A DNA stretch of 63,039 nucleotides from Ichthyobacteriaceae bacterium (lineage in GTDB: Bacteria; Bacteroidota; Bacteroidia; Flavobacteriales; JADGDT01): assembly GCA_023145615.1 (NCBI GenBank), contig JAGLDK010000005.1:1-63039 (forward strand). Reading direction: 5' to 3'. The position numbers and the translations under genes were made by a program. A model generated the notes under the pieces. That model was not told the DNA's origin and did no database searches. It saw nothing but the letters and a program-made list of their open reading frames with translations. Below, one piece after another: positions 4,037 through 59,678 of this stretch (position 1 is the stretch's first letter; every line of letters starts with the position of its first letter).

Positions 4037-4043
4037 ACTTTTT

Positions 4044-4100
4044 GAGTCCACTTCGAAAAAGTCCGTTTTTTTATTGGATTTAACTCTTCGGAGTGGACTT
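4044..4100 (+). terminator. Imperfect inverted repeat with an internal T-run after the aldolase gene
   Basis: GAGTCCACTTCG pairs with CGGAGTGGACTT, and GTCCGTTTTTTT lies inside. Its function is uncertain. Confidence 0.3.
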
Positions 4101-4254
4101 TAACATCTTAAAACTTTAGGATGTAAATATTGTGGTTGCACAACCTTTGGCGTATTAATACGTAAATGGTTTTTTTAATAAAAGGCTGTAACTACAATAA
4201 TTATAATTTATAAAATTTAGAAACTAACATATTTAACTATTCAAATAATATAAC

Positions 4255-5715: not shown

Positions 5716-5791
5716 TTATTAAGTAATAAAATAATTTATTTAAAATTGATAGTGTTCGCTCGTTCACTTTTAATTTGAATTAAAGCTTATA

Positions 5792-5841
5792 ATGGAGTTG
5801 ATGTTTTAAATATAAACTTTAAAACATCAACTCCATTTTTT
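5792..5841 (+). terminator. Rho-independent terminator after aldA
   Basis: A 19-bp stem, ATGGAGTTGATGTTTTAAA / TTTAAAACATCAACTCCAT, followed by TTTTT. Confidence 0.7.
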
Positions 5842-5865
5842 ATAAAACAACAAACAATTTGTAAT

Positions 5866-6612: not shown

Positions 6613-8078
6613 TGGAACCTACACAAGCTAAACCGCAAACAAAATTTAACACAAAATCTGAAACGAAACCTAAAGCAAATCTTAAAACAAAAAAGATAAT
6701 TAAACAACAAACACAAACACAAACACACGCACAGTTAGCCGAAGGGTTTTTATCGAATCAATTAAAGGCAAGTTGGTTTAATAAAAGTATTTGGTATCAG
6801 CGTGATAAAAGAGATGTGGCAACCAAAAAACTCAACGAGTGGGAAACACTTAGAGAGTTAGCATCGGATATAAAAGCACATACTTTATCGAAATTAGATG
6901 AGTATTTAATTGAGTTTGAAGAAAAGGCAACAGCCAACGGAATAAATATACATTGGGCTTCTGATGATAAGGAACACAACGAAATTGCAACCAATTTATT
7001 GAAAAAACACAATGCCAAAAAGGTTGTAAAAAGTAAATCGATGCTTTCGGAAGAGTGCGAACTGAATCATCATTTAGAAAATAATGGTATTGAAATTATA
7101 GAATCGGATTTAGGAGAAAGGATATTGCAATTTTCTGGAGAAAAACCAAGTCATATTGTAATGCCAGCTATTCATAAAACCAAAGAAGAGATTGGAGAGT
7201 TATTTGAGGAAAAGTTAAATACCAAAAAAAGTAACGATCCTGTTTATTTAACTCAAGCGGCACGATTACATTTAAGAGAAAAGTTTATAAATGCCGATGC
7301 ATCAATGAGCGGTGTAAATTTTGCGGTTGCCGAAACCGGTAGTTTTGTTCTTTGTACAAACGAAGGAAATGCCGATTTGGGTTTAACTGCAAACTCTAAA
7401 TTACACATTGCATCAATGGGAATTGAAAAGATAATTCCGAAGCAAGAGCATTTAGGGGTTTTTGTTAGAATGCTTGCTCGTAATGCAACTGGGCAACCAA
7501 TAACTACATATACAAGTCATTTTACAAAGCCAAATAAAGGTTCGGAAATACATATAATTATTGTTGATAATAACCGAACAAAATTGTTGGCAGAAGAGAA
7601 GTTTAACTCTTCGTTAAAATGCATACGTTGTGCGGCTTGTATGAATACTTGTCCGGTGTTTAAAAATAGTGGAGGACACTCTTATAATTTTGTTATTCCA
7701 GGACCTATTGGTGCAATTTTAGCACCAGCCCACGATATAAAAAAGTACGAAGATATGCCATTTGCATCTACGCTTTGCGGATCGTGTAGCAATGTTTGTC
7801 CGGTTAAAATAAATATACACGAACAGTTGTACGATTGGCGTCAGGAAATTACCCAACGCAAAAGTTCGTTTACCATAAAAAGTATAATGATGAAAGGTGG
7901 TGCTTTTGTACTAAGTCATACTTGGATGTATCGATTGTTTGGTAAAATAGGAGGTTTTTTTGTTCATAATTTCCGAAAGATTTCGACAATGGCAACACCA
8001 TGGGGAAAAGGCAGAGAGTTGCCCGATGTTCCGAAAGAAAGCTTTAAGGATTGGTGGGATAATAATGCTAAGAAGTAG
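6612..8078 (+). CDS. lutB: Lactate utilisation protein B (4Fe-4S, LUD domain)
   Basis: 488 aa with two ferredoxin motifs, 'CIRCAACMNTCPV' and 'CGSCSNVCPV'. The start overlaps the lutA stop as TAATG. There is an unusual K/T/Q-rich N-terminal extension of about 40 aa. Confidence 0.8.
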   Translation: MEPTQAKPQTKFNTKSETKPKANLKTKKIIKQQTQTQTHAQLAEGFLSNQLKASWFNKSIWYQRDKRDVATKKLNEWETLRELASDIKAHTLSKLDEYLIEFEEKATANGINIHWASDDKEHNEIATNLLKKHNAKKVVKSKSMLSEECELNHHLENNGIEIIESDLGERILQFSGEKPSHIVMPAIHKTKEEIGELFEEKLNTKKSNDPVYLTQAARLHLREKFINADASMSGVNFAVAETGSFVLCTNEGNADLGLTANSKLHIASMGIEKIIPKQEHLGVFVRMLARNATGQPITTYTSHFTKPNKGSEIHIIIVDNNRTKLLAEEKFNSSLKCIRCAACMNTCPVFKNSGGHSYNFVIPGPIGAILAPAHDIKKYEDMPFASTLCGSCSNVCPVKINIHEQLYDWRQEITQRKSSFTIKSIMMKGGAFVLSHTWMYRLFGKIGGFFVHNFRKISTMATPWGKGRELPDVPKESFKDWWDNNAKK

Positions 8079-8135
8079 CATTTTAATTAGTTACAAATTA
8101 GTAATTAGTTATTTTGAAATTAATATTTACAGGTT

Positions 8136-8720
8136 ATGACAACTAGAGAAAAAATACTGAATAGAATAAAAAAAGGTGTAGCACCAAATGTTGATTTGCC
8201 AGATATGAGCATTGCCGAAAGTTGGATAACTCCAATTAACCACCATGATTTAAAGCTTGTTTTAGAAAGTGTTGGGGGCGATTTGCAATATGTTGATTCG
8301 GTTGAAGAATTGAACTATAAGTTAGGCGATATGTTTCCTGAGAGCTTAAATATTTACTCAAATGTAAAGGGTGTAGATTCTAATTTTAGTATAAAAAATA
8401 AAACGGCAATTGAACTTGCAAATATTGGAGTAGCGGTGCTTAATGGCGATTTTATTGTTGAAGAAAATGGAGCAGTTTTTATATCGGATAAAAATATGGG
8501 GTTAGATTCAATACCCACTATTACTGAATATTTGGTAATGGTTATTCCGAAAAATAATATTGTTAAAACAATGCATCAGGCTTACAAACAGTTTAATTTA
8601 AGAGAGCTTAGATATGGTACATTTATTTCTGGTCCATCTAAAACAGCCGATATAGAATCGACTTTGGTATTTGGAGCACATGGAGCCAAAAATTTAACTG
8701 TATTTATGGTTAACGAGTAG
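8136..8720 (+). CDS. lutC: Lactate utilisation protein C (LUD/YkgG family)
   Basis: 194 aa. It is the third gene of the lutABC triplet and has the expected size. Confidence 0.65.
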   Translation: MTTREKILNRIKKGVAPNVDLPDMSIAESWITPINHHDLKLVLESVGGDLQYVDSVEELNYKLGDMFPESLNIYSNVKGVDSNFSIKNKTAIELANIGVAVLNGDFIVEENGAVFISDKNMGLDSIPTITEYLVMVIPKNNIVKTMHQAYKQFNLRELRYGTFISGPSKTADIESTLVFGAHGAKNLTVFMVNE

Positions 8721-8889
8721 TAAAGTAAGTAAAACTCAATGTTTTTTTTGAGCAAAAAGTGACATAGAAATGCCAATTTGTGTATTGCCATTAAGTGTAT
8801 ATAAATTCATATTTGTATAAATATTATTACGAAACAAAATTTAATAATTGCAGAACTACGCAATTTTACCATAAAAAACATAATATATA

Positions 8890-10164
8890 ATGAATGTAAT
8901 TAAGCAAGCATACGATTTGGCAAAAACTGAGTATGCAAAATTAGGAGTTGATACTGATGCAGTAATCAAAAAAATGGCTGATGTAAATGTAAGTTTACAT
9001 TGCTGGCAAACCGACGATGTTGGAGGTTTTGAAACTCCTGATGCTGAGCTTGGAGGTGGAGGAATTCAGGTTACCGGAAATTATCCTGGTAAAGCAAATT
9101 CAATAGAGGAAATGCGTGCCGATTTAGATAAATCAATGTCGTTAATTCCGGGTAAACAGCGTTTGAACTTACATGCAATTTACGGAGAGTTTCAAGGCTC
9201 GTTTGTTGATAGAGATGAGGTTGATGTTGAGCATTTTCAGGGTTGGATTGATTGGGCTAAAGAAAGAGAAATTGGTTTAGATTTTAATGCTTCTTGTTTT
9301 TCTCATCCTAAATCTAACGATGGTTTTACATTGTCGAGCAAGAATGAAGAAATACGTTTGTTTTGGGTTGAACACGTAAAGCAGTGTAGAAAAATTTCGG
9401 CAGAAATGGGTAAGCAGTTAGGTACTGCTTGTGTGCATAATATTTGGATTCCAGACGGGTCGAAAGATACTCCGGTTGATAGATCAGGGCATAGAAAGCT
9501 TTTGAAGAAATCGTTAGACGAAATTTTTGCAGTAGAATATCCAAAAGAACATATTAAAGATGCTGTTGAAAGTAAATTATTCGGAATAGGATCGGAATCG
9601 ATGGTAGTAGGTTCTCATGATTTTTACATGGGGTATGCTGTTAAAAACGAGAAATTAATTTGTTTAGATAATGGGCATTTCCATCCAACAGAGCAGGTTG
9701 GAGATAAAATATCATCTACACTAGAGTTTGTTGATGAGGTTTTGTTACACGTTACTCGTGGGGTTAGATGGGATAGTGATCATGTTGTTACTTTAAACGA
9801 TGATGTTACTATGATAGCTCAGGAAGTTGTACGTGCAAATGTTTTAGATAGAGTTAATATTGGACTTGACTTTTTTGATGCTAGTTTAAACAGAGTAGGG
9901 GCTTATGTAGTTGGAACTCGTGCAACACAAAAAGCATTTTTAATAGCTTTGTTAGAGCCAACAAAACTTATTTTAAAGTTTGAGGAAGATGCTAAGTATT
10001 TTGAAAGATTAGCAATGTTAGAAGAGATGAAAACAATGCCTTTTGGAGCAGTTTGGAATTACTATTGTGAGCAAGAAGGAGTGCCTGCAAACGGTGCTTA
10101 TATTACAGATGTACAGCAGTATGAAAAAGAAGTGCTTTTAGAAAGATCTATGGTTGAAGCATAA
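8890..10164 (+). CDS. rhaA: L-rhamnose isomerase
   Basis: 424 aa. 'VSLHCWQTDDVGGFE', 'NLHAIY' and 'DNGHFHPTE' are typical of RhaA-type isomerases. Confidence 0.8.
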   Translation: MNVIKQAYDLAKTEYAKLGVDTDAVIKKMADVNVSLHCWQTDDVGGFETPDAELGGGGIQVTGNYPGKANSIEEMRADLDKSMSLIPGKQRLNLHAIYGEFQGSFVDRDEVDVEHFQGWIDWAKEREIGLDFNASCFSHPKSNDGFTLSSKNEEIRLFWVEHVKQCRKISAEMGKQLGTACVHNIWIPDGSKDTPVDRSGHRKLLKKSLDEIFAVEYPKEHIKDAVESKLFGIGSESMVVGSHDFYMGYAVKNEKLICLDNGHFHPTEQVGDKISSTLEFVDEVLLHVTRGVRWDSDHVVTLNDDVTMIAQEVVRANVLDRVNIGLDFFDASLNRVGAYVVGTRATQKAFLIALLEPTKLILKFEEDAKYFERLAMLEEMKTMPFGAVWNYYCEQEGVPANGAYITDVQQYEKEVLLERSMVEA

Positions 10165-24089: not shown

Positions 24090-24782
24090 TTAGCCATTTT
24101 TATAAGCCACCATTAATTTGTTTTTATCTAAAATACAGATTCTATCTTTTTTAAGTTCTATAACCTTTTCCTCGTTAAATTCTCTCAAAACTCTACCTAC
24201 ACTCATTACTGACATGTTAGAGAATTCGGCTAAATCTTTACGAGTTATAAACGACATAATTTCGTTGCTATCGAAAACATCGGTTGATAGAATTAACAAT
24301 GACCAAGCAATACGTCCGGTAAGTTGTTTCGACGAAGAATTAGCCATGTTGTTAAAATTACTAACACCTTTTTTATTGATGTTTTTTATTGTTTCGGCAG
24401 CAAACTTACTATTTTTATTTATCAGTTTTTCAAACAAGCTATTATCGAAACTGCAAACAATACAATCAGTTAATGCCTCTAGTGTGTGTTGCATTATGGT
24501 GTTTACAAAAAGCCCGTCAAGTCCTATTAAATTACATTTTTTTTCTATTGAAACTAATGTTCGGGTGCTAGTAAATTCTTTGTAGAATTTAACATAACCT
24601 TTCTTTAAAAATAAGATGTTTGTGTTTGCCGATCCTTGCTTAGCAAGTACTTCACCTTTCTTATAATTAACTATAATTTTGGTTTTTTCTAGTTCCTCTA
24701 AGTCCTCACTTGTAAGTACATCAAAGCACTTTGACCTACCCTTGCATTTTATGTCAATATACTCATTGTCTCTAAACGTCAT
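24090..24782 (-). CDS. Crp/Fnr-family transcriptional regulator
   Basis: 230 aa with a cNMP-binding-like beta-roll at the N-terminus and a C-terminal HTH 'RKDLAEFSNMSVMSVGRVLREF'. It has five Cys, including the N-terminal 'CKGRSKC'. It is divergent from the Mbx-like operon. Confidence 0.75.
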   Translation of the reverse strand: MTFRDNEYIDIKCKGRSKCFDVLTSEDLEELEKTKIIVNYKKGEVLAKQGSANTNILFLKKGYVKFYKEFTSTRTLVSIEKKCNLIGLDGLFVNTIMQHTLEALTDCIVCSFDNSLFEKLINKNSKFAAETIKNINKKGVSNFNNMANSSSKQLTGRIAWSLLILSTDVFDSNEIMSFITRKDLAEFSNMSVMSVGRVLREFNEEKVIELKKDRICILDKNKLMVAYKNG

Positions 24783-25040: not shown

Positions 25041-25529
25041 ATGAAGAATAATGCACTAATGTTTTTGACTTTGATGTCAGTTTGGGTGTTGCTTAACGCA
25101 TCATTAGACCCAACGCTATTGGCTATCGGAGCAGGTGTTAGTTTGCTTATATCTTTTGCTTTTTGCTCAAAATGCGATGTAATAAGTGGTATAAACTTAA
25201 GTCCCAAGGCTATAGCTTATTCATTTATGTTCGTTTTTGTGTTTATTGGCGAGTTGATAAAAGCAAACATTAGCATCTCAAAGAGAGTTTTAGCGCCTTC
25301 ACTACCTATTAATCCAGGTATTGTACAGGTAAAAACTAAATTGAAGTCGAAAGTTGGAAGAATGGTATTAGCAAATGCCATAACTCTTACGCCAGGTACA
25401 TTTACATTGGATATTAAAGGCGAAGACCTTTTTATTCATTGGGTAGATGTAAAATCAACAGATGTTGATGGAGCGACAAAAGAGATAGTATCAACGTTTG
25501 AAAAGTATTTGGAGGTAATGTATGGTTAG
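25041..25529 (+). CDS. MrpE/MnhE-like membrane subunit (Mbx subunit A equivalent)
   Basis: It carries the 'LANAITLTPGTFTLD' MnhE signature. The ORF-track start at 24999 is a TTG inside a TAAATTTG -7 box, and the first ATG is at 25041. Confidence 0.8.
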   Translation: MKNNALMFLTLMSVWVLLNASLDPTLLAIGAGVSLLISFAFCSKCDVISGINLSPKAIAYSFMFVFVFIGELIKANISISKRVLAPSLPINPGIVQVKTKLKSKVGRMVLANAITLTPGTFTLDIKGEDLFIHWVDVKSTDVDGATKEIVSTFEKYLEVMYG

Positions 25530-25782
25530 TTCATTTATTTATTTAGCTGTAGCGATTAGTTTAATCAGCGTTTTGATCGTCTTAGTAAGATTTGCTAAGG
25601 GACCAGAAAAAGTAGATCGCATTGTTGCTTTTGATGTTATTTCAATTATTGGAGTTTCATTAATATTATTAATAGCAACGTTGATGAAGAGAGTTATTTA
25701 CATTGATGTAGCAATAGTTTATGCTATTCTAGGATTTATCGGTGTAGTTGTTGTTTCACGATTCATTAAAAAAGGACTGTAA
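25522..25782 (+). CDS. MrpF/PhaF-like membrane subunit (Mbx B equivalent)
   Basis: 86 aa with 'RFAKGPEKVDRIVAFDVISI'. It overlaps the upstream gene by 8 nt. Confidence 0.8.
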   Translation: MVSSFIYLAVAISLISVLIVLVRFAKGPEKVDRIVAFDVISIIGVSLILLIATLMKRVIYIDVAIVYAILGFIGVVVVSRFIKKGL

Positions 25783-26144
25783 TGGGAGATTTGTTAGAAA
25801 TTATTGGAGGTGTATTTCTGGTATTAGGTAGTATTACTATGCTGTTAGCAGCAATTGGAATGTATCGTATGCCTGATTTTTATAACCGTATCCAGGTGGC
25901 TACAAAAGCTTCAACATTGGGTTTATTGCAAGTGGCTTTAGGAGTTGGATTAATTATGCCAGGATGGGCACCAAAATTGGTTGTTCTTTTTGTGTTTATA
26001 TTATTCACAAACCCTATTTCTTCTCATTTAGTAGCTCGTGCTGCTTACTTTACAAAAGTACCAATGAGTAAGGATACTAAAATTGACAAACTAAAAGAGT
26101 CAATTAGCAAAGCACATTTGAAAACTGTAAAAACTAAAGCTTAA
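25782..26144 (+). CDS. MrpG/PhaG-like membrane subunit (Mbx C equivalent)
   Basis: 120 aa with 'MYRMPDFYNRIQVATKASTLG'. It has a TAATG stop/start overlap. Confidence 0.8.
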   Translation: MGDLLEIIGGVFLVLGSITMLLAAIGMYRMPDFYNRIQVATKASTLGLLQVALGVGLIMPGWAPKLVVLFVFILFTNPISSHLVARAAYFTKVPMSKDTKIDKLKESISKAHLKTVKTKA

Positions 26145-26149
26145 GAAAG

Positions 26150-26392
26150 ATGTTAACAGTATTAGCAGCAATATTAGGAATAGCAGCTGTAGTAGGAGCA
26201 TACTACGCTATTCACAATGAAAAATTGACCGCAGCTATAATTGCATCAGGAATAGTTGGTATGGTGTCGTCAATATTATTTTTATTATTAGCAGCACCAG
26301 ATGTTGCAATGACAGAAGCAAGTATTGGTAGTGCATTAACTACTGCTATCTTTTTCTTCACTTTAAACAAAATAAGACAAACAAATGGATAA
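26150..26392 (+). CDS. MbhD/DUF4040-like small membrane subunit (Mbx D equivalent)
   Basis: 80 aa with two to three TM segments and 'AAPDVAMTEASIGSALTT', which resembles the MnhB N-terminal part. Confidence 0.7.
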   Translation: MLTVLAAILGIAAVVGAYYAIHNEKLTAAIIASGIVGMVSSILFLLLAAPDVAMTEASIGSALTTAIFFFTLNKIRQTNG

Positions 26393-27089
26393 GAAATTTA
26401 TGGTAGCGCTGCTTGTAGCAGCTATGGCAGTTATTCTATTTCCTTTGTTTCAATCATTTGAAGGAGGAACGCAATTAAGCGAATTAGGACAATATTACAC
26501 GCAAAATGGAGTAAGCGATACAGGAGCAACCAACTTGGTAGCATCTGTAGTTGTTACTTACAGAGGGTTAGATACTCTTGGTGAGGTAACTATTTTATTC
26601 CTTGCAGCATCTATTATCTCATTCTTTTTGAGTGTAAGTAAAGATGATAGAATTGAAAACAGAACAGTTATGTCTGTAACCGAAATTTTGAGTACCGCAT
26701 CTCAAACTCTTGTGCCAATTATTGTATTGGTAGGAGCTTATATTTTGGTTAACGGTCATTTAACTCCAGGTGGAGGTTTCCAGGGTGGTGCTATTATTGC
26801 ATCGGGTACCTTACTTATGTTCTTAGCAAATCCAAATCACAAATTAAACCACACAATTATTCATGTTATTGAATCTACTTCAGGTATTGCATTCGTAGCT
26901 ATTGGTGTTATTGGTGTTTTAATGATGGACGGCGGATTTTTAAGTAACAAGTTGTTCGATCTTGGTACTCCGGGTGAGGTTATCTCAGCAGGAGCTATGC
27001 CATTAATCAACATTTTCTTGGGACTTAAAGTAGGAACAGAGTTATCTAACGTTCTTGGAATATTTGTAGAATCACAAAACGAGAAATAA
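26385..27089 (+). CDS. MnhB/MrpB-domain membrane subunit (Mbx F equivalent)
   Basis: 234 aa with 'VVTYRGLDTLGEVTILF' and 'GHLTPGGGFQGGA'. It overlaps the upstream gene by 8 nt. Confidence 0.8.
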   Translation: MDKKFMVALLVAAMAVILFPLFQSFEGGTQLSELGQYYTQNGVSDTGATNLVASVVVTYRGLDTLGEVTILFLAASIISFFLSVSKDDRIENRTVMSVTEILSTASQTLVPIIVLVGAYILVNGHLTPGGGFQGGAIIASGTLLMFLANPNHKLNHTIIHVIESTSGIAFVAIGVIGVLMMDGGFLSNKLFDLGTPGEVISAGAMPLINIFLGLKVGTELSNVLGIFVESQNEK

Positions 27090-27090
27090 G

Positions 27091-27450
27091 ATGGATCAGT
27101 ATTTAGGACAAGTAGTGATGGCAATAGGATTTATTCTTGCAATTTTAGGGTTGTATGGCTTATTGTCTCAAAAAAACATGATAAAGATGATTCTTGGTTT
27201 CTCAATATTTACTACTGGTGTAAATATTATTATGGTTGCCATAGGATATGTAAAGGGAGGTACAGCACCTATTTTAGATGCTGAAGGAAATGCAGTTGCA
27301 AAATTTGTAGATCCAGTACCACAGGCTTTGGTATTAACATCAATCGTTATTGGATTAGGTGTTACAGCTATGATGTTGGCTTACGTTATGAAGTTGTATC
27401 AGGATAAAAAGAGTTTGAACATAAATGACTATAAAGATTTAAAATGGTAG
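27091..27450 (+). CDS. MrpC/NuoK-like membrane subunit (Mbx G equivalent)
   Basis: 119 aa with 'DPVPQALVLTSIVIGLGVTAMML'. Confidence 0.8.
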   Translation: MDQYLGQVVMAIGFILAILGLYGLLSQKNMIKMILGFSIFTTGVNIIMVAIGYVKGGTAPILDAEGNAVAKFVDPVPQALVLTSIVIGLGVTAMMLAYVMKLYQDKKSLNINDYKDLKW

Positions 27451-30400
27451 GACCAATTTATATTATAGCACTTGCTCTCGGACTTGCGTTTTTCCTTGGG
27501 TTTTTTGGAAAGTCGGCTAAGACTCTTTCAGTTTACCTAATGTTAGCAGGACTTGCTGCCATGACATGTATCTCTGGTACGTGGCTTAGCGCATTTATCG
27601 ACGGAAGTGTTTCGACACAGGAAATTTATACGGCTGGTTTTAAACCTCCGTATTCTATTAATTTAAGAATGGGTCTTGAGGAGGCTGCGTTTACGTTTAT
27701 TATTAACCTAATCGGACTTCTTGGAGGAACATACTTATTTCAAACACTTAAAAAAGCAGGTAATGCCGCAATGTCGGTATTTATCATACTTATTATGAGT
27801 TTGAATGTTATTGTAATGACACGTGATCTTTTCAACCTTTTCGTATTCGTTGAGATTGGAAGTATCGCTACTGCTGGTTTAATACTTTTAGACAAAGAGT
27901 CGAAAGCATTACAAGCCGGTTTGAAATACATGATTGCTACAGGAGTAATTTCTGGTTTATTATTAATCGGAATTATATTTGCTTATAGCTTTGTAGGTAA
28001 TTTAAATATTGATGCTATTATTGGTGCTAACCTTGCAGGTACAACTGCTGGTATGGTTGCTGCTTTTTTAATAGTAGTTGTTCTTGTACTTGAGTTAAAA
28101 CCTTTCCCAGCAAACGGATGGGGACTTGATGTTTACGAAGCTGCAAACCCTGGAGTTGGTGCATTAGTATCGGCTGCAATCGGAACTGCTAGTTTATTCG
28201 TACTTCACAAAGTTCTACCAATGGCTGGAGAATCTTTTTACCCTTACATTGTAGCGGTAGGAGTTATTACTTTTGTAGGTTCGAACTTAGTAGGTACTCA
28301 ACAAAAAAATGCAAACCGTTTGTTAGGATATTCTTCTATCGGACAACTTGGATTGGTTGTTGCAGTTATCGGACTAGAGCCTGTATTAGGAACTAGTTTT
28401 AAATTCATCGCATTTGCTTTAATAATCAATCACGTATTGGCTAAAGCAGGTTTGTTCTGGATTTCAGGAATTATTAGAAAAGCTAATATTTCAGAATGGT
28501 CGGTATTGCGTACAAAACCAGCATTACTTATTTCATTCTTGATTTTCATATTTGCTTTAATCGGATTCCCTCCATTCCCTTCTTTCTTCGGAAAATATCA
28601 GTTAATCATGAATTTGATTTCTTCTGATAACATTGGTACTGCTGCATTTATCCTTATCGGATCTTTTGCCGAAGGTATTTACATGTTCCGTTGGGTAGGC
28701 GATGCGTTGAAAAACGAAGTTGCTGAAGATGCTACTGAATCTCTTGATTGTGGAAAACTAAACAAGGTACTTCCTGTATTATTGATGGCTGTAGCTGTTG
28801 TTGCTGCCGGATATTTATCAATACCTTTTGTTGATGGAGCTTATTCTACATACTTTATTCCACTTGCATTTATTATGTTTATTGGATTAATTGATAGTTT
28901 CCTTCCTGCTGTTGTAAAGAACGTTGTTTCTATTGCAGGTATGGCATACTTCACTTACGTTATGTATCCAATTATTGAGGGTGATTTAATGCGTTCTATT
29001 TTCTTCGGAATATTTATGATTGGGGGTATTCTTACTCTTATTCCTGGATTTGCTAAGAAAGGTAAGCGCGAAGGTTTCTATCCTGCTGCATTATTAATGT
29101 ATGCTGGTTTAGCAACTATTATTACTGCTGATAACACTTTCGGATTTTTCTTCGGATGGGAATTAATGACTGCTGGTTCTTACTTCCTTATCATTCGTGG
29201 TAAACGTTCAAAAGCTCACGCATATTCATACATGTTGTTCTCTGTTGCCGGAGCTTACTTAATCCTTTTCGGATTCGGTTTTGCTTATCAAGCAATTGGT
29301 TCATCGTTGTTAGAAGGATTAGGAGAGATTAAATTGTTGCCTACATTGGCTTACACTGCATTGGCTATTGGTTTCATGACAAAAACGGCATCATTAGGTC
29401 TTCATATATGGTTGCCAGGTGCACACGGTGAAGCTGAGTCTGACGTATCTCCAATGGTATCGGCAGTATTGCTTAAAGCCGGAGTATTTGGTTTAATGTT
29501 GTTGTTCCTTAATATGGGAGACAATGGTGAAACTATTTTATACGTACTAGGTTGGGTTGGAGCATTTACTGCTTTAATGGGTAACCTTTCTGCAACTTTC
29601 CAGGAAGATGCAAAACGTATGTTGGCTTACTCTTCAATAGGGCAATTAGGATATATCCTTTTCGCTATTTCAATGATGACTACTTTAGGATGGTTAGCAG
29701 GTTTTACTTATGTGTTAAACCACTTTATGTTTAAATCTATTCTGTTTATGGTAGTTGGAGGAATTGTTGTAGCAACAGGTACTCACGATTTATACCGTAT
29801 GGGTGGACTTATCAAAAAAATGCCTTTAGCATTTATAGCTGTTATGGTTGCTATGATTACTATGGCTGGTCTTCCACCACTTTCAGGATTTGCAGGTAAA
29901 TGGTTGTTCTACAACGCTGTAATTCTTAAAGGATGGTACATTCAAGGAGTTATAGTATTCTTTGCAGGTACAATTGCATTTATGTATGCATACAAAATGC
30001 TTCACTCAATTTTCTTTGGTCAATTAAAAGATAACCACCGAAACTTAAAAGAGTTAAGTCCTGCAATATTAATTCCTGCTTATATTCTTATTGCAGGTAT
30101 TATGTACTTCTCAGTATTCCCACAAGACGTTCTACAACCTATAAACGAACTATTAGTTAGTTTAAATCTTGGAGATACACTTACATGGGCTGCCGATGGT
30201 AATGCAACTACAGTATTAAGTAACTGGAATGGTAATGCTGTTATGATAATTATTGTAACAACATTTGCTTTAGTATTGCTTTATACTATGCTAATTACTG
30301 GTAAAACTAAAAAACTTGAGCAGTTTAACATTGCTTATTCTGCCGAGCGTCCTTTCCGTCCTGAAACAACACATTATTCACATAATATGTTTGCAGGATT

Positions 30401-30581
30401 AAATAAGGCTATTGGATTTTTAGTAGCTCCTGGAATTACAAGTTTCTGGAATAATGTAAGTACTATGGTAATGGATTTTGCTGGTATGGTGAGAAGAATT
30501 TACAGTGGTAATGGACAGGTTTATGCTGGTCAGATCATTGTTTATATCATAGTTTTCTATTTTATAGCATTAGGTAAATAA
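27444..30581 (+). CDS. Fused double antiporter-like subunit (two NuoL/M/N-MrpD modules; Mbx H + H' equivalent)
   Basis: 1045 aa. Module 1 has 'LFVFVEIGS' (TM5 Glu) and 'LKYMIATG'. Module 2 has 'FFGWELMTAGSYF' and 'MTKTASLGLHIWLPGAHGEAESDVSPMVSAVLLKAG'. Confidence 0.85.
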   Translation: MVGPIYIIALALGLAFFLGFFGKSAKTLSVYLMLAGLAAMTCISGTWLSAFIDGSVSTQEIYTAGFKPPYSINLRMGLEEAAFTFIINLIGLLGGTYLFQTLKKAGNAAMSVFIILIMSLNVIVMTRDLFNLFVFVEIGSIATAGLILLDKESKALQAGLKYMIATGVISGLLLIGIIFAYSFVGNLNIDAIIGANLAGTTAGMVAAFLIVVVLVLELKPFPANGWGLDVYEAANPGVGALVSAAIGTASLFVLHKVLPMAGESFYPYIVAVGVITFVGSNLVGTQQKNANRLLGYSSIGQLGLVVAVIGLEPVLGTSFKFIAFALIINHVLAKAGLFWISGIIRKANISEWSVLRTKPALLISFLIFIFALIGFPPFPSFFGKYQLIMNLISSDNIGTAAFILIGSFAEGIYMFRWVGDALKNEVAEDATESLDCGKLNKVLPVLLMAVAVVAAGYLSIPFVDGAYSTYFIPLAFIMFIGLIDSFLPAVVKNVVSIAGMAYFTYVMYPIIEGDLMRSIFFGIFMIGGILTLIPGFAKKGKREGFYPAALLMYAGLATIITADNTFGFFFGWELMTAGSYFLIIRGKRSKAHAYSYMLFSVAGAYLILFGFGFAYQAIGSSLLEGLGEIKLLPTLAYTALAIGFMTKTASLGLHIWLPGAHGEAESDVSPMVSAVLLKAGVFGLMLLFLNMGDNGETILYVLGWVGAFTALMGNLSATFQEDAKRMLAYSSIGQLGYILFAISMMTTLGWLAGFTYVLNHFMFKSILFMVVGGIVVATGTHDLYRMGGLIKKMPLAFIAVMVAMITMAGLPPLSGFAGKWLFYNAVILKGWYIQGVIVFFAGTIAFMYAYKMLHSIFFGQLKDNHRNLKELSPAILIPAYILIAGIMYFSVFPQDVLQPINELLVSLNLGDTLTWAADGNATTVLSNWNGNAVMIIIVTTFALVLLYTMLITGKTKKLEQFNIAYSAERPFRPETTHYSHNMFAGLNKAIGFLVAPGITSFWNNVSTMVMDFAGMVRRIYSGNGQVYAGQIIVYIIVFYFIALGK

Positions 30582-30591
30582 TAACTATTTA

Positions 30592-30641
30592 ATCAATTGC
30601 TATTAGTTATAAATATTGGTTTGTAACTAATAGCAATTGAT
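30592..30641 (+). promoter_or_regulatory. 18-bp perfect hairpin in the H/H'-to-M spacer of the Mbx-like operon
   Basis: ATCAATTGCTATTAGTTA-N14-TAACTAATAGCAATTGAT, with no T-run after it. Confidence 0.5.
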
Positions 30642-30663
30642 ATTTAGTTTGATAATTATAATT

Positions 30664-31581
30664 ATGGATTATAGTATAACAAAATTTTTATGGTCATTGC
30701 TTGGGCTATTCATTATCCTTAACTGGGGAATGCTTATGTCGTCAACAATGCGTAGAGTAGGAGCAAGACTTGCTGGTAGAATTGGAGTACCAATGTATCA
30801 ACCTTGGATTGATCTTGCTAAATTAATGGCTCTTAAGACTTGGTTGTCTCATGGAGTTATGTACTACATAGGACCTGTATTTCGTCTTGTAGGAGGTGTA
30901 GGTATGTTCCTTTTTATGCCGATAATTTTCGGTTCTGAAATTTGGAGTAACTATTCTTTTTCGGGAGATTTAATCTTATTGCTTTATTTCCAATCATTCG
31001 GAATGTTAGGTATGGCAATGGGTGCATCTGATAGTTCATCGCCACACGCCTCAATAGGTATTTCTCGTGGTTTAGCTCAGTTTGCAGCAGTAGAGGTTCC
31101 TATGACTTTAGCAGTTATTGCAATTGCTATTCAACACCAAACGTTTTCGTTTAATTCAATTATGGAAGCTCAACAAGGTGGAGTATTAAATTGGACTATT
31201 TTTACTAACCCATTAGCATCTATTGCTGGTATGTTAGCAATGTTAGGAGCAATGAGCCACTCGCCATTTAACCTTGTAAAAGCACCAAACGAAATTCCAA
31301 TAGGACCACCAACTGAATATCACTCATCATTTTTGAGTGTTTTACGTACAAACAGTGCTATTATTCACGTAGTAGAAGCTGCTTTGTTCATGAACTTATT
31401 CTTCGGTGGAGCTGATACTTGGTTAATGTACATTGTTAAAACTTTCTTCGTTTACTTTATTTCGGTATTTGTAGGTATGGTTTTCCCTCGTATGAAAGTT
31501 GAAGATTCGGTACGTTGGTTCCTTAAATGGCCAACAGCAGTTGGAATTATTGCAGTATTAGTAGCTGCATATTGGAAGTAA
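30664..31581 (+). CDS. NuoH/MbhM-like membrane subunit (Mbx M equivalent)
   Basis: It has 'GISRGLAQFAAVEVPM' and 'SPFNLVKAPNEIPIGPPTEYHS', as in NuoH/HyfC. The ORF-track TTG start at 30637 lies inside a hairpin arm, and the first ATG is at 30664. Confidence 0.8.
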   Translation: MDYSITKFLWSLLGLFIILNWGMLMSSTMRRVGARLAGRIGVPMYQPWIDLAKLMALKTWLSHGVMYYIGPVFRLVGGVGMFLFMPIIFGSEIWSNYSFSGDLILLLYFQSFGMLGMAMGASDSSSPHASIGISRGLAQFAAVEVPMTLAVIAIAIQHQTFSFNSIMEAQQGGVLNWTIFTNPLASIAGMLAMLGAMSHSPFNLVKAPNEIPIGPPTEYHSSFLSVLRTNSAIIHVVEAALFMNLFFGGADTWLMYIVKTFFVYFISVFVGMVFPRMKVEDSVRWFLKWPTAVGIIAVLVAAYWK

Positions 31582-31813
31582 TTTTTAATTGCCTTTTGCA
31601 AATTAAAAACGTTATAGGCTTTAAGCTTTAATTCGAATGCTTTATTAGCATCGTTAAGGCTTAATGCTTTAGTTGTAAATAAAAATGTTGGTTTGTAATA
31701 ATTATTTGATTTTCAAATAATTGCACATCATTTTTGCATTGGTAGTATAATTTGTACTACTGTATAAAGCATTATAGCGTATAGCTTTTTTTGCTAAAGC
31801 AAAAAAAAAGAAA

Positions 31814-32476
31814 ATGGAAGAGAAAAAAGATAAGTTTTTAGCACCTGAAAACGAAGTTAGACAGGTGTCTGCTCCTGACGGATCTATTATTGAAGTTGAT
31901 CCGTTAAAGGATTACTTCAGTCAAGAGAAGCCAGAGCCATATAAAGTAGGTTCAGGGCCTGTTGAGAATTTCCTTAACTGGGCACGTGCTGAGAGTTTAT
32001 GGGTATTAGGATTTGGAACTGGATGTGGAAGTATTGAAATTCCACCATTGGTAACACCTCGTTTCGATATGTACCGTTTTGGTGTGCAAATGAGAGCTAC
32101 TCCACGTCAATCAAACGTATTTATTATTTCAGGATACCTTGCCATAAAAACTCTTAAAAGAGCTATTCGTGCTTACGAGCAAATGCCTAGCCCTAAATAT
32201 ATAGTTGCACTTGGTAGTTGTACAATTAATGGAGGTATGTATTACGATTCATACAATACCATTAATCGTTTAGATCAATATTTGCCAGTTGATGCTTATA
32301 TAGCTGGATGTATGCCACGTCCGGAGGCTTTATTAGCTGGTTTTGCTGAGTTGAAAAAACTTATTAAAGCTGGTAAAGGTCACAAGGCAAACGAGTATGT
32401 TGAAAATCTTGAATGGTACAAAACAAACCAAAAGAAGATTATCAAGGATTGGAATATGCCTGATTACAACTGGTAA
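31814..32476 (+). CDS. NuoB/MbhJ-like [4Fe-4S] subunit with only three cysteines (Mbx J equivalent)
   Basis: 220 aa with 'GFGTGCGSIEI', 'LGSCTINGG' and 'IAGCMPRPEAL'. These are the only three Cys in the protein. Confidence 0.85.
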   Translation: MEEKKDKFLAPENEVRQVSAPDGSIIEVDPLKDYFSQEKPEPYKVGSGPVENFLNWARAESLWVLGFGTGCGSIEIPPLVTPRFDMYRFGVQMRATPRQSNVFIISGYLAIKTLKRAIRAYEQMPSPKYIVALGSCTINGGMYYDSYNTINRLDQYLPVDAYIAGCMPRPEALLAGFAELKKLIKAGKGHKANEYVENLEWYKTNQKKIIKDWNMPDYNW

Positions 32477-32591
32477 TATTGAGTTGAAGCGTTTATTGTT
32501 GTAAAATTTAATTTATCAGCAAAACAATTATAGTTATGTTGATAAATGATTAAATCATTCAACGATTAAACAATTAAACATTGAAGAAAAA

Positions 32592-33170
32592 ATGCAAAAA
32601 GGAATAAATAATTTGATTGAAAAATTCGGTGCCTCTGATTTAGTTGAGAGAAGATCGGGTTTGTCTTTTATTACTGTTGATCAAACTAAAGCTGTTGCCG
32701 CTATCACACATCTTAAGGATATTGATGGTTATACTGTTTTATCTTTTATTACAGCAGCAGATTGGATTGAAGATGGAAAGATGCAATTAACTTATATGTT
32801 GAATAATCCTGCTGAAGTTGCAGAGATTGCTATTCGTGTAATGTTAGAGCGTAAAAAAGAAGCTGGAGAATCAATGGAGACAATTCATCACCTTTGGCCA
32901 AATGCTAAAAAATGGCAACAGGAGTTGAAAGAAATGTACGGTGTTGATTTCCCAACAAGCCCAGGTGTTAACGATTCTTTCATTCTTGAAGGATGGGATG
33001 ATATGCCACCTAACCGTCGCGATTTCGATACTAAGCAATATGCAGAGGACACTTTCTTCCCTCGTGGAGGTCGTGTTACTCACGATCCTGCTACTTACAT
33101 GCGCGAACAGCTTGATCCAAAAGATCCTCAGTACTATACTAAGAAGAAGAAAAAAGACATTAATAGTTAA
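32592..33170 (+). CDS. NuoC/MbhK-like 30-kDa subunit (Mbx K equivalent)
   Basis: 192 aa with 'HHLWPNAKKWQQELKEMYGVDF', which corresponds to the NuoC 'W..A.W.ERE..DMFGI' region. Confidence 0.75.
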   Translation: MQKGINNLIEKFGASDLVERRSGLSFITVDQTKAVAAITHLKDIDGYTVLSFITAADWIEDGKMQLTYMLNNPAEVAEIAIRVMLERKKEAGESMETIHHLWPNAKKWQQELKEMYGVDFPTSPGVNDSFILEGWDDMPPNRRDFDTKQYAEDTFFPRGGRVTHDPATYMREQLDPKDPQYYTKKKKKDINS

Positions 33171-33180
33171 TTTTTGAGAG

Positions 33181-34374
33181 ATGGGAATTAGTAAATTATT
33201 TACGATGAATGAAGACAGAAGTCTTTATCCTGAACATGATGAAAATGGGAAACCTATCATCGACCTTGAGTCTCATAAGTTTTTAAAACTATGGCAAGGA
33301 CCTCAACATCCTGGTATTACTGGTAACATGTCGTTAGAATTGACAGTAAGTGGAGATGAAATTGTAGAATCTAAAACTCACGTAGGTTACCTACACCGTG
33401 GATTTGAGAAGTTACTTGAACGTAGATTGTTTGTGCAATGTATGCCAACATCTATCCGTTTGTGTGTTGCCGAACCAGATCCAAATGAGTACATAGTATC
33501 AACAGCTGTTGAGGAGCTTGGAGGAATTGAAATTCCTGATAATGCTAAATGGTTGAGAATGCTTTCGTTAGAAATGGCTCGTTTACAAGTTTTGTTACGT
33601 GGTGTTCCTGGTCAGGCTGGTACTTTTGCACTTGGTTTAGGATACCAGTGGGGTAACTACCTTCGTGATTTAATTCTTGATAGTTTTGAAGAATTAACAG
33701 GTGGGCGTGTTTATCATATGTACATTATTCCTGGTGGAGTTCGTGGTAATTTACCTGAAGGCTTTAAAGGGCGTATGTTAGAAAAACTTAAGCTAATTGA
33801 TGAGTTTGTTGTAAAAATAGACAAGTTGATTTTTCAAAACGTTGTTTTCGAAAGCAGAGCCAAAGGATTAGGTCATATACCTAAAGAGTGGGTTGATAAA
33901 TATGGAGTTTACGGACCTGCAGCTCGTGCGTCAGGTGTTATGCGCGATGTGCGTAAAACTAACCCTTACTTAAACTACGATCAATTAGATTTCGAACCTC
34001 ATGTAACTACAGAGGGAGATGTTTATGCTCGTTCGGTTGTTAGATACAATGATCTTCAAATGACTGTTGACATGATTCGTCAGATTTTAGATAAGATGCC
34101 TGATGGTGGAGATATTAGAGCGCAAACTCCAAACGTTTTACACTGGAAAATTCCTAAAGGAGAAACTTATGTAAAGTGTGAAAGTTCTCGTGGTGAGTAT
34201 GGTATGTATTTTGTGACTGACGGTAGCGATAAGCCTCGTAGAGCTCACTTAAAAGGACCTTCTTATACTCACGCAAATGCACTTTTAGATAAATTGCTTA
34301 TTAATGCTAACATAGCAGATACAGCGGCAATTATGGTTTCTTTAGCAACTTGTCCTCCAGAAATAGAGAGGTAA
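33181..34374 (+). CDS. NuoD/MbhL/MbsL-like catalytic-core subunit lacking a complete NiFe site (Mbx L equivalent)
   Basis: 397 aa with 'GPQHPGITGNMSL' and 'GYLHRGFEKL'. The N-terminal motif is 'RLCVAE' and the C-terminal end is 'ATCPPEIER', so both positions read CxxE rather than CxxC. Confidence 0.85.
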   Translation: MGISKLFTMNEDRSLYPEHDENGKPIIDLESHKFLKLWQGPQHPGITGNMSLELTVSGDEIVESKTHVGYLHRGFEKLLERRLFVQCMPTSIRLCVAEPDPNEYIVSTAVEELGGIEIPDNAKWLRMLSLEMARLQVLLRGVPGQAGTFALGLGYQWGNYLRDLILDSFEELTGGRVYHMYIIPGGVRGNLPEGFKGRMLEKLKLIDEFVVKIDKLIFQNVVFESRAKGLGHIPKEWVDKYGVYGPAARASGVMRDVRKTNPYLNYDQLDFEPHVTTEGDVYARSVVRYNDLQMTVDMIRQILDKMPDGGDIRAQTPNVLHWKIPKGETYVKCESSRGEYGMYFVTDGSDKPRRAHLKGPSYTHANALLDKLLINANIADTAAIMVSLATCPPEIER

Positions 34375-34402
34375 ATTGGTTTAACTGTTGAAATGTTGAA
34401 CT

Positions 34403-34426
34403 GTTGAAATACTTCGGTGTTTTAAC
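34403..34426 (+). promoter_or_regulatory. UUCG-tetraloop hairpin in the L-to-N spacer of the Mbx-like operon
   Basis: GTTGAAATAC-TTCG-GTGTTTTAAC gives a 10-bp stem including two G-U pairs. It is preceded by CTGTTGAAAT direct repeats. Confidence 0.45.
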
Positions 34427-34468
34427 AACTAAACAAAAAACTATTAAACGAATAAACATTAAGAAAAA

Positions 34469-36277
34469 ATGAATATAAAAAAGTTATTAACACCGTTTAC
34501 TGCTTGGGGTAATGTAACTAAAGATCCTGTTACAATTAAGGATCCTTTAAACGAGCGTCCAGGTGCAGATAGATATAGAGGTTTTCACCGAAACGATGTA
34601 GAAGCATGTGTTGGTTGTGGTTCTTGTGAAGATATTTGCGAGAATGAAGCAATTGACTTAATGCCTGCAAAGGATACAAAAGATGGTGATTCAGGATTAC
34701 GCCCAATGATTGATTACGGTCGTTGTTGCTGGTGTGCTCTTTGTGTTGATGTTTGTACTACAAACTCACTTACATTGAGTAACGAATATACTTGGATTTC
34801 TACCGACCCTGAAGATTTCAGATATATACCTGGTATAGATAAAAAAGAATGGGATAATAATAACGATAAAGGTTGGAAAAAACCTGAGCCAAACTACGAA
34901 TTCTATCCATTAAAAAGAATTCAACCGTCTCACTTATCGCCCGAAGATCGTTCCGATTCGTTTATCGAAATGATGCATGGTTATTCAAAAGACCAAGCAA
35001 TGCAAGAAGCCGATCGTTGTGTTGAGTGTGGTATTTGTACTGCAACTTGTCCTGCACACATGGGTATTCCTGAGTATATCAAAGCTATTCGTAACGATGA
35101 TTTAGAGGAAGGTTTACGTATACTTTACGATACAAACCCATTACCAGAAATTTGTGGACGTATTTGTACTCATAAATGTGAAACTGTTTGTACAATCGGA
35201 CATAAAGGAGATCCATTATCTATCCGTTGGCTGAAACGTTATATTGCCGATCAAAATCCATCGGAGAGATATAAGAAAATTCTTGAAACTGAAAACCTTG
35301 TATCAAAAGGGAAGAAAGTTGCAATTATTGGTGCTGGTCCTTCTGGATTATCAGCAGCTCACTACTTAGTACAGATGGGTTACGAAGTTAAGATTTTTGA
35401 AAAACTTGCAGCTGCCGGTGGTATGATGCGTTACGGTATTCCATCGTATCGTTTACCTTACGACCAAATAGACAAGGATATTGATTACATCTTAAGTCTT
35501 GGAGTAGATATTCAGTATAACATAAACGTTGGAAACGGTGAAGGAGAAATTTCTCTTGAAACTTTAGGAAATGATTATGATGCTGTATTCTCTGGTACTG
35601 GGTTACACTTAGGACGTTCAACAGGTATTCCTGGTTCTGATAACAAGCACGTTTACGCTTCTCCAGATTTATTACGTTGGATAGTTGAAGGAAAAGAATT
35701 TGAGGTTCCTGAAAACGTAGTAGTTATTGGTGGTGGTAACGTGGCAATGGACATTACTCGTTCAATGGCTCGTTTGCAGATGAAGAAATACGGAAAAGTT
35801 GGTGTTATTACTACTGCTCTTGAAGGAGAAGATAAAATGCCAGCCGATCGTGAAGAAATTGACGAAGGACGTGAAGAAGGATGTATTATCAACCCAGGTT
35901 GGGCTCCAAAATCAGTGGAAATTGATTCGAATGGTGTACCAACAGGATTAAATGTTGTTAAATGTCACTCTTTATTCGATTCTGAAGGACGTTTCAACCC
36001 TCAAACTGATGAAGACAATAAGGAATTCTGGCCTGGTACAATGATTATTGAATCAATTGGACAGGGTATGGATATTTCTTACCTAGATGGAAAATACAAA
36101 GATCAGTTAGAATTCGGACCAAGAGGAAGAGTTCAAACAGATGAGTATTACCAAACAGGTTTACCATGGTTATTCATGGGTGGAGACATCATTAAAGGAC
36201 CAGATGTTATTACAGGTATTGCTACAGGTCATAAAGCTGCAGTAGGTATCGACAGAATGCTAAATCCAGAATTCTAG
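34469..36277 (+). CDS. Fusion of a NuoI/MbhN-like 2x[4Fe-4S] ferredoxin domain with a GltD/SudA/NfnB-type NAD(P)H-dependent FAD oxidoreductase (Mbx N equivalent plus extra module)
   Basis: 602 aa. The N-terminus has 'CVGCGSCEDIC' and 'CCWCALCVDVC'. The middle has 'RCVECGICTATCP...EICGRICTHKCETVC'. Further on come 'VAIIGAGPSGLSAAHYL', 'GGMMRYGIPSYRLP', 'VVVIGGGNVAMD' and 'FMGGDIIKGPDVITGIATGHKAA'. Confidence 0.85.
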   Translation: MNIKKLLTPFTAWGNVTKDPVTIKDPLNERPGADRYRGFHRNDVEACVGCGSCEDICENEAIDLMPAKDTKDGDSGLRPMIDYGRCCWCALCVDVCTTNSLTLSNEYTWISTDPEDFRYIPGIDKKEWDNNNDKGWKKPEPNYEFYPLKRIQPSHLSPEDRSDSFIEMMHGYSKDQAMQEADRCVECGICTATCPAHMGIPEYIKAIRNDDLEEGLRILYDTNPLPEICGRICTHKCETVCTIGHKGDPLSIRWLKRYIADQNPSERYKKILETENLVSKGKKVAIIGAGPSGLSAAHYLVQMGYEVKIFEKLAAAGGMMRYGIPSYRLPYDQIDKDIDYILSLGVDIQYNINVGNGEGEISLETLGNDYDAVFSGTGLHLGRSTGIPGSDNKHVYASPDLLRWIVEGKEFEVPENVVVIGGGNVAMDITRSMARLQMKKYGKVGVITTALEGEDKMPADREEIDEGREEGCIINPGWAPKSVEIDSNGVPTGLNVVKCHSLFDSEGRFNPQTDEDNKEFWPGTMIIESIGQGMDISYLDGKYKDQLEFGPRGRVQTDEYYQTGLPWLFMGGDIIKGPDVITGIATGHKAAVGIDRMLNPEF

Positions 36278-36303: not shown

Positions 36304-36339
36304 AAAACCTCCAAGGTCGGATGATCTTGGAGGTTTTTT
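36304..36339 (+). terminator. Rho-independent terminator ending the Mbx-like operon
   Basis: AACCTCCAAG-N10-CTTGGAGGTT followed by a T-run. Confidence 0.8.
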
Positions 36340-59643: not shown

Positions 59644-59678
59644 CTTCTTTTTTTGCTTGTTCATTCAAATATTGTAAT

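Follow-up and report, generated by a model that had tools for sequence, protein, structure and literature searches.

The 63,039-nucleotide stretch of contig JAGLDK010000005.1 analyzed here (the window), from an Ichthyobacteriaceae bacterium, carries an operon of twelve genes for a respiratory complex related to MBS, the sulfane-sulfur reductase of Pyrococcus furiosus, in which the last subunit is fused to a flavoprotein module with a predicted NAD(P)H site. The operon is real, intact and well conserved: its twelve open reading frames (ORFs) occupy positions 25041-36277, all on the forward strand, and by their order and Pfam domains they follow the sequence A-B-C-D-E-G-H-H'-M-J-K-L-N, with H and H' fused and M ahead of J-K-L. 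We read the product as an anaerobic, ion-translocating reductase of the MBS type, probably acting on sulfane sulfur and wired to NAD(P)H, and we give this reading a probability of roughly 0.45. Such a complex would combine an Mrp antiporter module with a Q-module resembling that of complex I, as in the MBX/MBS type. The window belongs to a metagenomic scaffold of 158.5 kb (ENA ERZ23498500), and its host, an uncultured, Flavobacteriales-like bacterium with ~31% G+C, is presumably a mesophile.

A Pfam profile search matched each of the twelve ORFs to its expected family, in agreement with the co-directional, Mrp-Mbx/Mbs-type gene order given in a preliminary description of this DNA, and chance cannot explain such a set of matches. 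The gene products, and the two parts of the last one, are as follows.

25041-25529, forward strand: subunit A, MrpE/MnhE-like (Pfam MNHE, 2.3e-36).
25522-25782, forward strand: subunit B, MrpF-like (Pfam MrpF_PhaF, 1.1e-16).
25782-26144, forward strand: subunit C, MrpG/MnhG-like (Pfam PhaG_MnhG_YufB, 4.4e-25).
26150-26392, forward strand: subunit D, MbhD/DUF4040-like (Pfam MbhD, 3e-19).
26385-27089, forward strand: subunit E of the MbsE type (Pfam MnhB, 3.3e-23, and MbhE, 2.1e-08).
27091-27450, forward strand: subunit G, MrpC/NuoK-like (Pfam Oxidored_q2, 7e-25).
27444-30581, forward strand: fused H-H' protein of 1045 aa with two antiporter-like pump modules (Pfam Proton_antipo_M in two stretches, 4.5e-85).
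30637-31581, forward strand: subunit M, NuoH/MbsM-like membrane anchor (Pfam NADHdh, 6.3e-45).
31814-32476, forward strand: subunit J, NuoB/MbsJ-like, carrier of the proximal [4Fe-4S] cluster (Pfam Oxidored_q6, 1.2e-21).
32592-33170, forward strand: subunit K, NuoC/MbsK-like (Pfam Complex1_30kDa, 2.6e-17).
33181-34374, forward strand: subunit L, NuoD/MbsL-like (Pfam Complex1_49kDa, 2.1e-60).
34469-34816, forward strand: N-terminal domain of the last ORF, MbsN/NuoI-like with two [4Fe-4S] clusters (6u8y_N, 3.8e-19 over residues 7-116).
34931-36277, forward strand: C-terminal, NfnB/GltD-like module of the same ORF, residues 155-602 (Pfam Fer4_20, 1.2e-30, and Pyr_redox_2, 5e-22).

With the fused last protein as the query, a collection holding one genome per species yielded 277 places that encode a close relative. 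All counts of related loci given here refer to the best 80 of these 277 places, each at least 65% identical to the query, and their denominators differ with the reach of the contigs. The best 80 are nearly all from Bacteroidota, where the operon is common, and include metagenome-assembled genomes (MAGs) of Flavobacteriales and Ichthyobacteriaceae at 79-86% identity, Draconibacterium, Lentimicrobiaceae, Prolixibacter bellariivorans and P. denitrificans; a few are labeled Chlorobiota, Delongbacteria, Aminicenantes or Spirochaetaceae. When all twelve proteins were compared with these loci by tblastn, the 12-gene order was shared wherever the contig extends (57/57 loci spanning both ends of the fused antiporter gene, with the H-H' fusion kept in every one). 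The search for the same synteny proposed in the preliminary description therefore finds it again in 57 or more further genomes, most of them from Bacteroidota. Beyond this set, ~15 clusters at the 50% identity level, among 1.84 billion cluster representatives, span the full length of the fused protein at identities down to ~34%, and named members of the family come from Thermosipho melanesiensis (52%, 616 aa), WOR-3, Candidatus Hydrothermae and Spirochaetaceae. Many of the related MAGs have names that point to sulfidic caves or springs, cold seeps and sediments, an anecdotal pattern drawn from the names alone.

To our knowledge, MBS is the only member of its branch of the complex I superfamily that has been characterized biochemically and structurally, and it is seen as an intermediate between hydrogenases and complex I. 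Subunits L, J, M, H, H', E and K and the N-domain were compared with all PDB sequences, and for each of them the top relative was, by a wide margin, a chain of MBS (6U8Y). The affinity of L and J was judged by the ranking of bit scores: subunit L matches 6u8y_L at 3.4e-87 (296 bits), as against 3.3e-56 (194 bits) for Nqo4 and, among the hydrogenases, 1.4e-38 (136 bits) for MbhL and 8.8e-26 for HycE, and subunit J matches 6u8y_J at 3.5e-60, as against ~1e-40 for the PSST subunit of complex I. Subunit M is likewise closer to 6u8y_M (3.3e-39) than to NdhA (1e-14), and the best match of subunit K is 6u8y_K (3.2e-08). Subunit E aligns along nearly the same residues with 6u8y_E (27-226 versus 27-227, 7.4e-40) and, like MbsE, has in one chain what the hydrogenase MBH divides between two (MbhE and MbhF/MnhB). 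The N-terminal half of the H-H' protein has 6u8y_H (MbsH) as its top match at 9.8e-39 and the C-terminal half has 6u8y_X (MbsH') at 1.3e-57, reaching residue 615 of 618, so that the second module includes the C-terminal, lateral-helix extension of the MbsH' type. These results uphold the preliminary description in placing the NuoH-like gene before J-K-L, in counting two antiporter modules, and in calling the locus a bacterial MBX/MBS relative rather than a hydrogenase, complex I or a plain Mrp antiporter.

The window and P. furiosus thus have the same subunit set, gene order, single E and long C-terminal extension of H', but MBS has separate H and H' subunits and comes from a hyperthermophilic archaeon rather than from an uncultured bacterium. 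The pump modules differ at one position. The key glutamate and lysine residues of both modules are conserved across the relatives, with the sole exception of the equivalent of MbsH K250, a lysine of transmembrane helix 8 in the central charged axis, which is a threonine at residue 248 of the fused protein and a threonine or serine in 56/60 relatives. All equivalents of the charged-axis residues of MbsH' are retained in the MbsH'-like half.

A group-4 membrane-bound [NiFe] hydrogenase of the Mbh, Ech or Hyc kind would share common ancestry and module architecture with this complex; MbhL and HycE are detectable relatives of subunit L, and MBH (6CFW) has the same Mrp-derived membrane arm together with J, K, L, M and N. 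However, MBH has a single H, split E and F, an M gene that follows L, and four NiFe cysteines in L, and the window has none of these features. Its gene order is MBS-like, no hyp or hyc genes occur among the annotated window ORFs, and subunit L, which scores 136 bits against MbhL and 296 against MbsL, retains 2/4 NiFe cysteines, one in each motif (RLCVAEPD and ATCPPEIER). These residues, C95 and C391, align with C85 and C385 of MbsL (motifs RICVPEPD and NCPPDIDR) and are themselves variable: the first is cysteine in 59/73 relatives and alanine in 13/73, and the second is cysteine in 62/79 and tyrosine in 17/79. A hydrogenase is therefore extremely improbable.

The comparison with complex I turns on the chamber that J, L and M form in MBS. 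Complex I (NuoA-N) and the cyanobacterial NDH-1 share with the window a homologous Q-module (B, C, D and I), H, K and the antiporter-like L/M/N, and complex I follows the same logic of a nucleotide-oxidizing flavoprotein that feeds a chain of iron-sulfur clusters. The operon could accordingly encode an alternative form of complex I that oxidizes NAD(P)H with menaquinone and has a GltD-like module where complex I has NuoEFG. An NAD(P)H flavoprotein placed atop NuoI would mirror the modularity of complex I, Bacteroidota are well established to make menaquinone, and the ~250 mV between NADH and menaquinone would be enough for two pump modules. The chamber of MBS, moreover, is hydrophobic and has the same width as the one in complex I (PMC7684303). 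In contrast, the residues that bind quinone in complex I are missing from the window. The positions of His38 and Tyr87 of Nqo4 are taken by T47 and V96 in subunit L, both invariant in 73 relatives, and MbsL likewise lacks the histidine and tyrosine. Subunit J lacks the tandem cysteine motif of NuoB, having GTGCG instead, and aligns without gaps to MbsJ (GFGTGCGS versus AFCTGCGG) with a loop of equal length. It has only three cysteines, C71, C136 and C166, which correspond to C28, C93 and C123 of MbsJ, the three ligands of the catalytic [4Fe-4S] cluster in MBS, and a glycine where MbsJ has the non-ligating C25. The cysteine triad and this glycine are kept in 68 relatives, with a tyrosine at the position of C166 as the single exception, and from these motifs the J cluster is predicted to be a site-differentiated [4Fe-4S] cluster held by three cysteines.

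The subunit content also departs from that of complex I. As the preliminary description had stated, NuoA, NuoJ, NuoE, NuoF and NuoG are absent among the annotated window ORFs, and an Mrp E/F/G/B module is present instead. The flavin module is of the GltD type, which uses FAD, rather than of the NuoF type, which uses FMN, and the subunits are far closer to those of MBS (296 versus 194 bits for L). On this balance an alternative complex I is quite unlikely. A hydrogenase, complex I itself and a plain Mrp antiporter were rejected because metal ligands, quinone ligands and subunits are lacking and because the affinity for MBS is clear.

The feature that sets the window most clearly apart from P. 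furiosus MBS is its last subunit. This ORF (34469-36277, forward strand, 602 aa) matches Pfam Fer4 families as well as Fer4_20 and Pyr_redox_2. The preliminary description had called it NuoI-like, which is correct for the MbsN/NuoI-like residues 7-116, a domain that the NCBIfam NuoI and FpoI models also match at ~1e-22, but the description had overlooked the NfnB/GltD-like flavoprotein formed by residues 155-602. The latter aligns end to end with Thermotoga maritima NfnB (4ylf_B, 1.5e-69) and the large subunit of P. furiosus NfnI (2.3e-66), and also resembles GltD (~1e-45) and the N-terminal part of dihydropyrimidine dehydrogenase (DPD). From its motifs, the module is predicted to bind two [4Fe-4S] clusters, FAD and NAD(P)H, matching the Fer4_20 domain with two clusters, the FAD Rossmann fold and the NAD(P)H Rossmann fold of NfnB (4YLF), GltD and the N-terminal module of DPD. 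Those enzymes pair the module with an NfnA, GltB or DHOD partner, whereas in the window such a partner is absent (no NfnA-like gene occurs in the operon or among the annotated flanking ORFs) and the module is fused to a subunit of a respiratory complex. MBS, in contrast, has a stand-alone N subunit of ~200 aa and takes electrons from free ferredoxin; the window N adds a module of 450 aa and two more clusters.

Conservation extends to the cofactor sites of the fused protein. All 17 cluster cysteines are unchanged across 80 relatives: nine belong to the N-domain, where two form a CC pair, and eight to the GltD-like iron-sulfur domain. The FAD motif GxGxxG (GAGPSG) and the dinucleotide motif GGGNVAMD are conserved as well. 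The peripheral arm is thus predicted to contain one FAD and five [4Fe-4S] clusters, that of J included. Because the FAD/NAD(P)H module of the NfnB/GltD type is complete, a pyridine nucleotide is indicated as a redox partner, which tempers the earlier view that the terminal acceptor could not be read from context. Public annotation names the fused protein only as 'FAD-dependent oxidoreductase' or 'glutamate synthase small chain', and the NCBIfam model NF010590/PRK13984 ('putative oxidoreductase') covers residues 2-599 with its positions 7-607 of 611 (E = 1.7e-251). The score, 835.7 bits, lies below the curated cut-off of 946, so by the NCBI threshold the protein is a relative of that family rather than an equivalog.

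The NAD(P)H site departs from its better known relatives in one motif. The YRR/FRK-type motif of DPD binds the 2'-phosphate of NADPH, and an acidic residue at that position is the usual mark of a preference for NADH. In the window, the YRR/FRK motif that follows the second strand of the NAD(P)H fold in NfnB, GltD and DPD is replaced by T-[S/A/C]-L-E-x-E, which is invariant in the relatives and hints that NADH is favored over NADPH. Representative proteins (P0121-P0136, P0235 and P0260) divide the fused NuoI-GltD family into two types at this site, one with T-x-L-E and a QxKKYGK insertion (the window, Thermosipho and WOR-3) and one with the canonical, NADPH-type YRR (Spirochaetaceae, Hydrothermae and others).

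Taken together, the cofactor motifs suggest an electron wire in which electrons could be exchanged between NAD(P)H and FAD, then the two clusters of the GltD-like domain, the two clusters of the N-domain, and finally the three-cysteine cluster of J. The fused flavoprotein would be the counterpart of NuoEFG and the link to the pyridine-nucleotide pool, serving instead of, or in addition to, ferredoxin. The J cluster would face a chamber formed by J, L and M, where its open iron, by analogy with P. furiosus MBS, could reduce a hydrophobic substrate without proton chemistry. Sulfane sulfur in the form of polysulfide is the most likely substrate: besides the shared gene organization, the window and MBS agree in having two vestigial NiFe cysteines in L, no quinone-binding histidine or tyrosine, and the same cysteine triad and loop length in J, and they differ in J by the glycine at the position of MbsJ C25. 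The redox step would then drive the fused H-H' antiporter-like modules and the Mrp-type Na+/H+ module.

Homologous operons in Thermotogae lend support to this scheme. The protein of Thermosipho melanesiensis (ABR31076.1) has the same N-GltD fusion, with 52% identity over residues 4-599, and the same subtype of nucleotide site (T-S-L-E). In T. maritima, a 13-subunit MBX homologous to MBS was described, and its mbxA gene rose 4.4-fold on addition of S0; the same study predicted, but did not measure, a ferredoxin-dependent, Na+-pumping sulfur reductase (Liang et al, 2022; PMC9431562). The T. maritima complex has 13 subunits and the window 12 ORFs, a difference that the H-H' fusion could explain, and the Thermotogae are hosts of another phylum with another growth temperature. 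Earlier still, Thermotoga and proteobacteria were reported to have mbx-like operons with a gltD-like flavoprotein in the place of NuoI, and the flavoprotein was read as the site of NAD(P)+ reduction (Degli Esposti, 2015; PMC4758237). The novelty of the locus was therefore rated too high in the preliminary description, given the operons described in 2015, the induction by S0 in T. maritima and the existing NCBIfam model NF010590/PRK13984. The architecture is thus already known and its occurrence in Bacteroidota appears under-reported, and the locus is a Bacteroidota member of the described bacterial kind of mbx operon with a gltD-like subunit. Searches of a limited body of literature for Mbx or MBS in Bacteroidota (Prolixibacter and Draconibacterium included) and in Ignavibacteria found nothing specific to Bacteroidota.

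The reading of 2015 leads to the alternative that electrons run in the other direction. As in the original proposal for Mbx, the complex could be an Rnf-like, ion-translocating ferredoxin:NAD(P)+ oxidoreductase, with electrons passing from ferredoxin through the N-domain clusters and the GltD-like flavin to NAD(P)+; in a mixed variant, it would be a hub that splits ferredoxin electrons between NAD(P)+ and a substrate in the pocket. Modules of the GltD/NfnB type are reversible in known enzymes, the one in the window sits on the subunit that accepts electrons from ferredoxin, and the step from ferredoxin to NAD(P)+ has more driving force than that from NADH to polysulfide. Genome papers have assigned this role to bacterial Mbx (PMC4758237), including a preprint on Mesotoga that treats Mbx as a ferredoxin:NADP oxidoreductase (10.1101/322537). 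However, electrons on this route would bypass the pocket of J, L and M, where coupling in this superfamily is presumed to start, and yet the pocket residues and the three-cysteine cluster of J are strictly conserved. In addition, the archaeal Mbx, first proposed to be a ferredoxin:NAD(P)+ enzyme, proved to be a sulfane reductase (PMC7684303). We consider the Rnf-like role unlikely.

Genes that accompany the operon in its relatives raise a further alternative. A thirteenth co-directional gene, for a DHOD-like FMN TIM-barrel protein (~327 aa), lies ~30 nt downstream of the N-GltD gene in 58/80 loci (for example, L073:2646-3629 and L054:12014-12994), and a gene for a CBS-pair protein (~156 aa) lies downstream of the operon in 38/80 (loci L001-L005 and 33 others; for example, L002:11970-12440). 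One or both occur in 76/80 loci, but both are lacking in the window, and the loci most closely related to it, L001-L005, have the CBS gene and lack the DHOD-like one. The DHOD-like protein matches NCBIfam NF005741/PRK07565 at 5e-115; added to the NuoI-like domain and the GltD-like module, it would complete the domain types found in DPD. The complex might therefore act on another substrate, either an organic disulfide or trisulfide or the substrate of the DHOD-like protein, in which case the window would hold a trimmed version of a larger, undescribed enzyme. This is unlikely. The absence of the DHOD-like gene from the window and from L001-L005 indicates that it is dispensable for the core complex, a comparison of its product with PDB sequences gave no match at 1e-5, and we found no literature that ties it to a function.

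Several points weigh against an NAD(P)H-linked reductase of sulfane sulfur. By standard potentials, the step from NADH as sole donor to polysulfide yields only ~50-60 mV, or ~10-12 kJ per two electrons. This would be meagre for two pump modules, and a ferredoxin donor or an acceptor of higher potential would fit better. The 12 kJ per two electrons quoted for MBH is a comparable figure (PMC8165549). Our limited literature search found no measured activity, donor, acceptor or coupling ion for any bacterial member, in line with the view of the preliminary description that no bacterial form of this architecture has had its function assigned by experiment. That description had also noted the lack of sulfur-metabolism genes, and none occurs among the annotated window ORFs. 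The additional DHOD-like and CBS-pair genes of the relatives have no place in the scheme, and the hint of a preference for NADH over NADPH comes from a single motif. An AlphaFold2 model of the fused subunit, built from an alignment of 43 sequences, has a mean pLDDT of 67.5 with values below 50 in the N-terminal iron-sulfur domain, which is too poor for the cluster-to-cluster geometry to be read. The variability of the vestigial cysteines in L might be listed here as well, but is neutral for an MBS-type complex, because these cysteines are dispensable in MBS (PMC7684303).

Upstream of the operon, and divergent from it, lies a candidate regulatory gene.

24090-24782, reverse strand: Crp/Fnr-family regulator of 230 aa (Pfam cNMP_binding, 5.6e-13, and HTH_Crp_2, 3.8e-11).

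A homolog of this regulator is found divergently upstream in 33-36 of the 46 related loci that have upstream sequence. The FNR-type arrangement C-x2-C-x5-C with a fourth cysteine is present in 30/34 of the regulator homologs, and the first of these cysteines is an aspartate in the window and in loci L001, L002 and L004. This gene arrangement suggests that the operon may be under the control of O2 or redox state through the divergent regulator, and expression would probably be anaerobic. A search for the Escherichia coli-type FNR box TTGAT-N4-ATCAA in the intergenic regions between regulator and operon of 34 loci gave results no better than shuffled sequences except in 2 loci, and we therefore claim no regulatory site.

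Within the operon, gene junctions are overlapping or short, apart from a gap of 233 nt on the 5' side of the NuoB-like gene, and two hairpins were noted.

30593-30640, forward strand: RNA hairpin between the HH' and M genes, found in a terminator scan, with a perfect 22-bp stem (-31.2 kcal/mol, z = -9.1).
36304-36337, forward strand: hairpin resembling an intrinsic terminator that closes the operon 27 nt past the stop codon; a T-run comes after its 15-bp stem.

The first hairpin overlaps the mechanical TTG start of the NuoH-like ORF. For subunit M, the ATG at 30664 is more likely to be the start than the TTG at 30637: it lies 27 nt, or 9 codons, downstream of the TTG that opens the 314-aa ORF, and the gene as publicly called on the source contig encodes 305 aa. 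The M-J gap (31582-31813) is AT-rich and unusually long, separates the genes of the membrane arm from the J-K-L-N genes, and contains a sigma-70-like site at 31722-31751; it could harbor an internal promoter. In relatives the same gap is mostly 10-30 nt, with 120-230 nt in a few, and the HH'-M hairpin, when checked among the relatives, was not conserved. Both features are thus genome-specific or variable and fall outside the definition of the system.

The other annotated genes of the window are of a housekeeping kind (accBC, fabH, exopolysaccharide (EPS) genes, nusA, infB, surE, lpxB and a tail-specific protease). A rhamnose-catabolism cluster at 1293-10164 on the forward strand encodes an FGGY kinase, a class II aldolase fusion, an aldehyde dehydrogenase and RhaA, and LutABC-like lactate-utilization genes with CCG, LUD and Fer4_8 domains are interleaved in it. 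Three copies of tRNA-Gln(UUG) with equal Rfam scores stand in tandem at 59573-59861 on the forward strand, spaced by ~106-111 nt.

It is possible, though doubtful, that the family as a whole amounts to a 'complex I for sulfur' in many anaerobic or facultative marine Bacteroidota, Thermotogae, WOR-3 and others, that is, an ion-pumping sulfane-sulfur reductase driven by pyridine nucleotide, probably NADH, and working through a bare three-cysteine [4Fe-4S] cluster, with the DHOD-like FMN protein docked in most carriers. If so, sulfur reduction coupled to energy conservation in sulfidic sediments would have here a widespread and so far unrecognized route, and in most carriers a respiratory pump would be joined to a redox module of the DPD type, an arrangement not known to have been described. 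Cultured mesophilic carriers exist in Prolixibacter bellariivorans, P. denitrificans and Draconibacterium, so the role of bacterial Mbx could be tested in organisms that are handier than hyperthermophiles. With its own NAD(P)H flavoprotein, the bacterial complex seems to have solved independently the step that NuoEFG performs in complex I and, if sulfane sulfur is the substrate, it would be a new and abundant player in the sulfur cycling of sediments.

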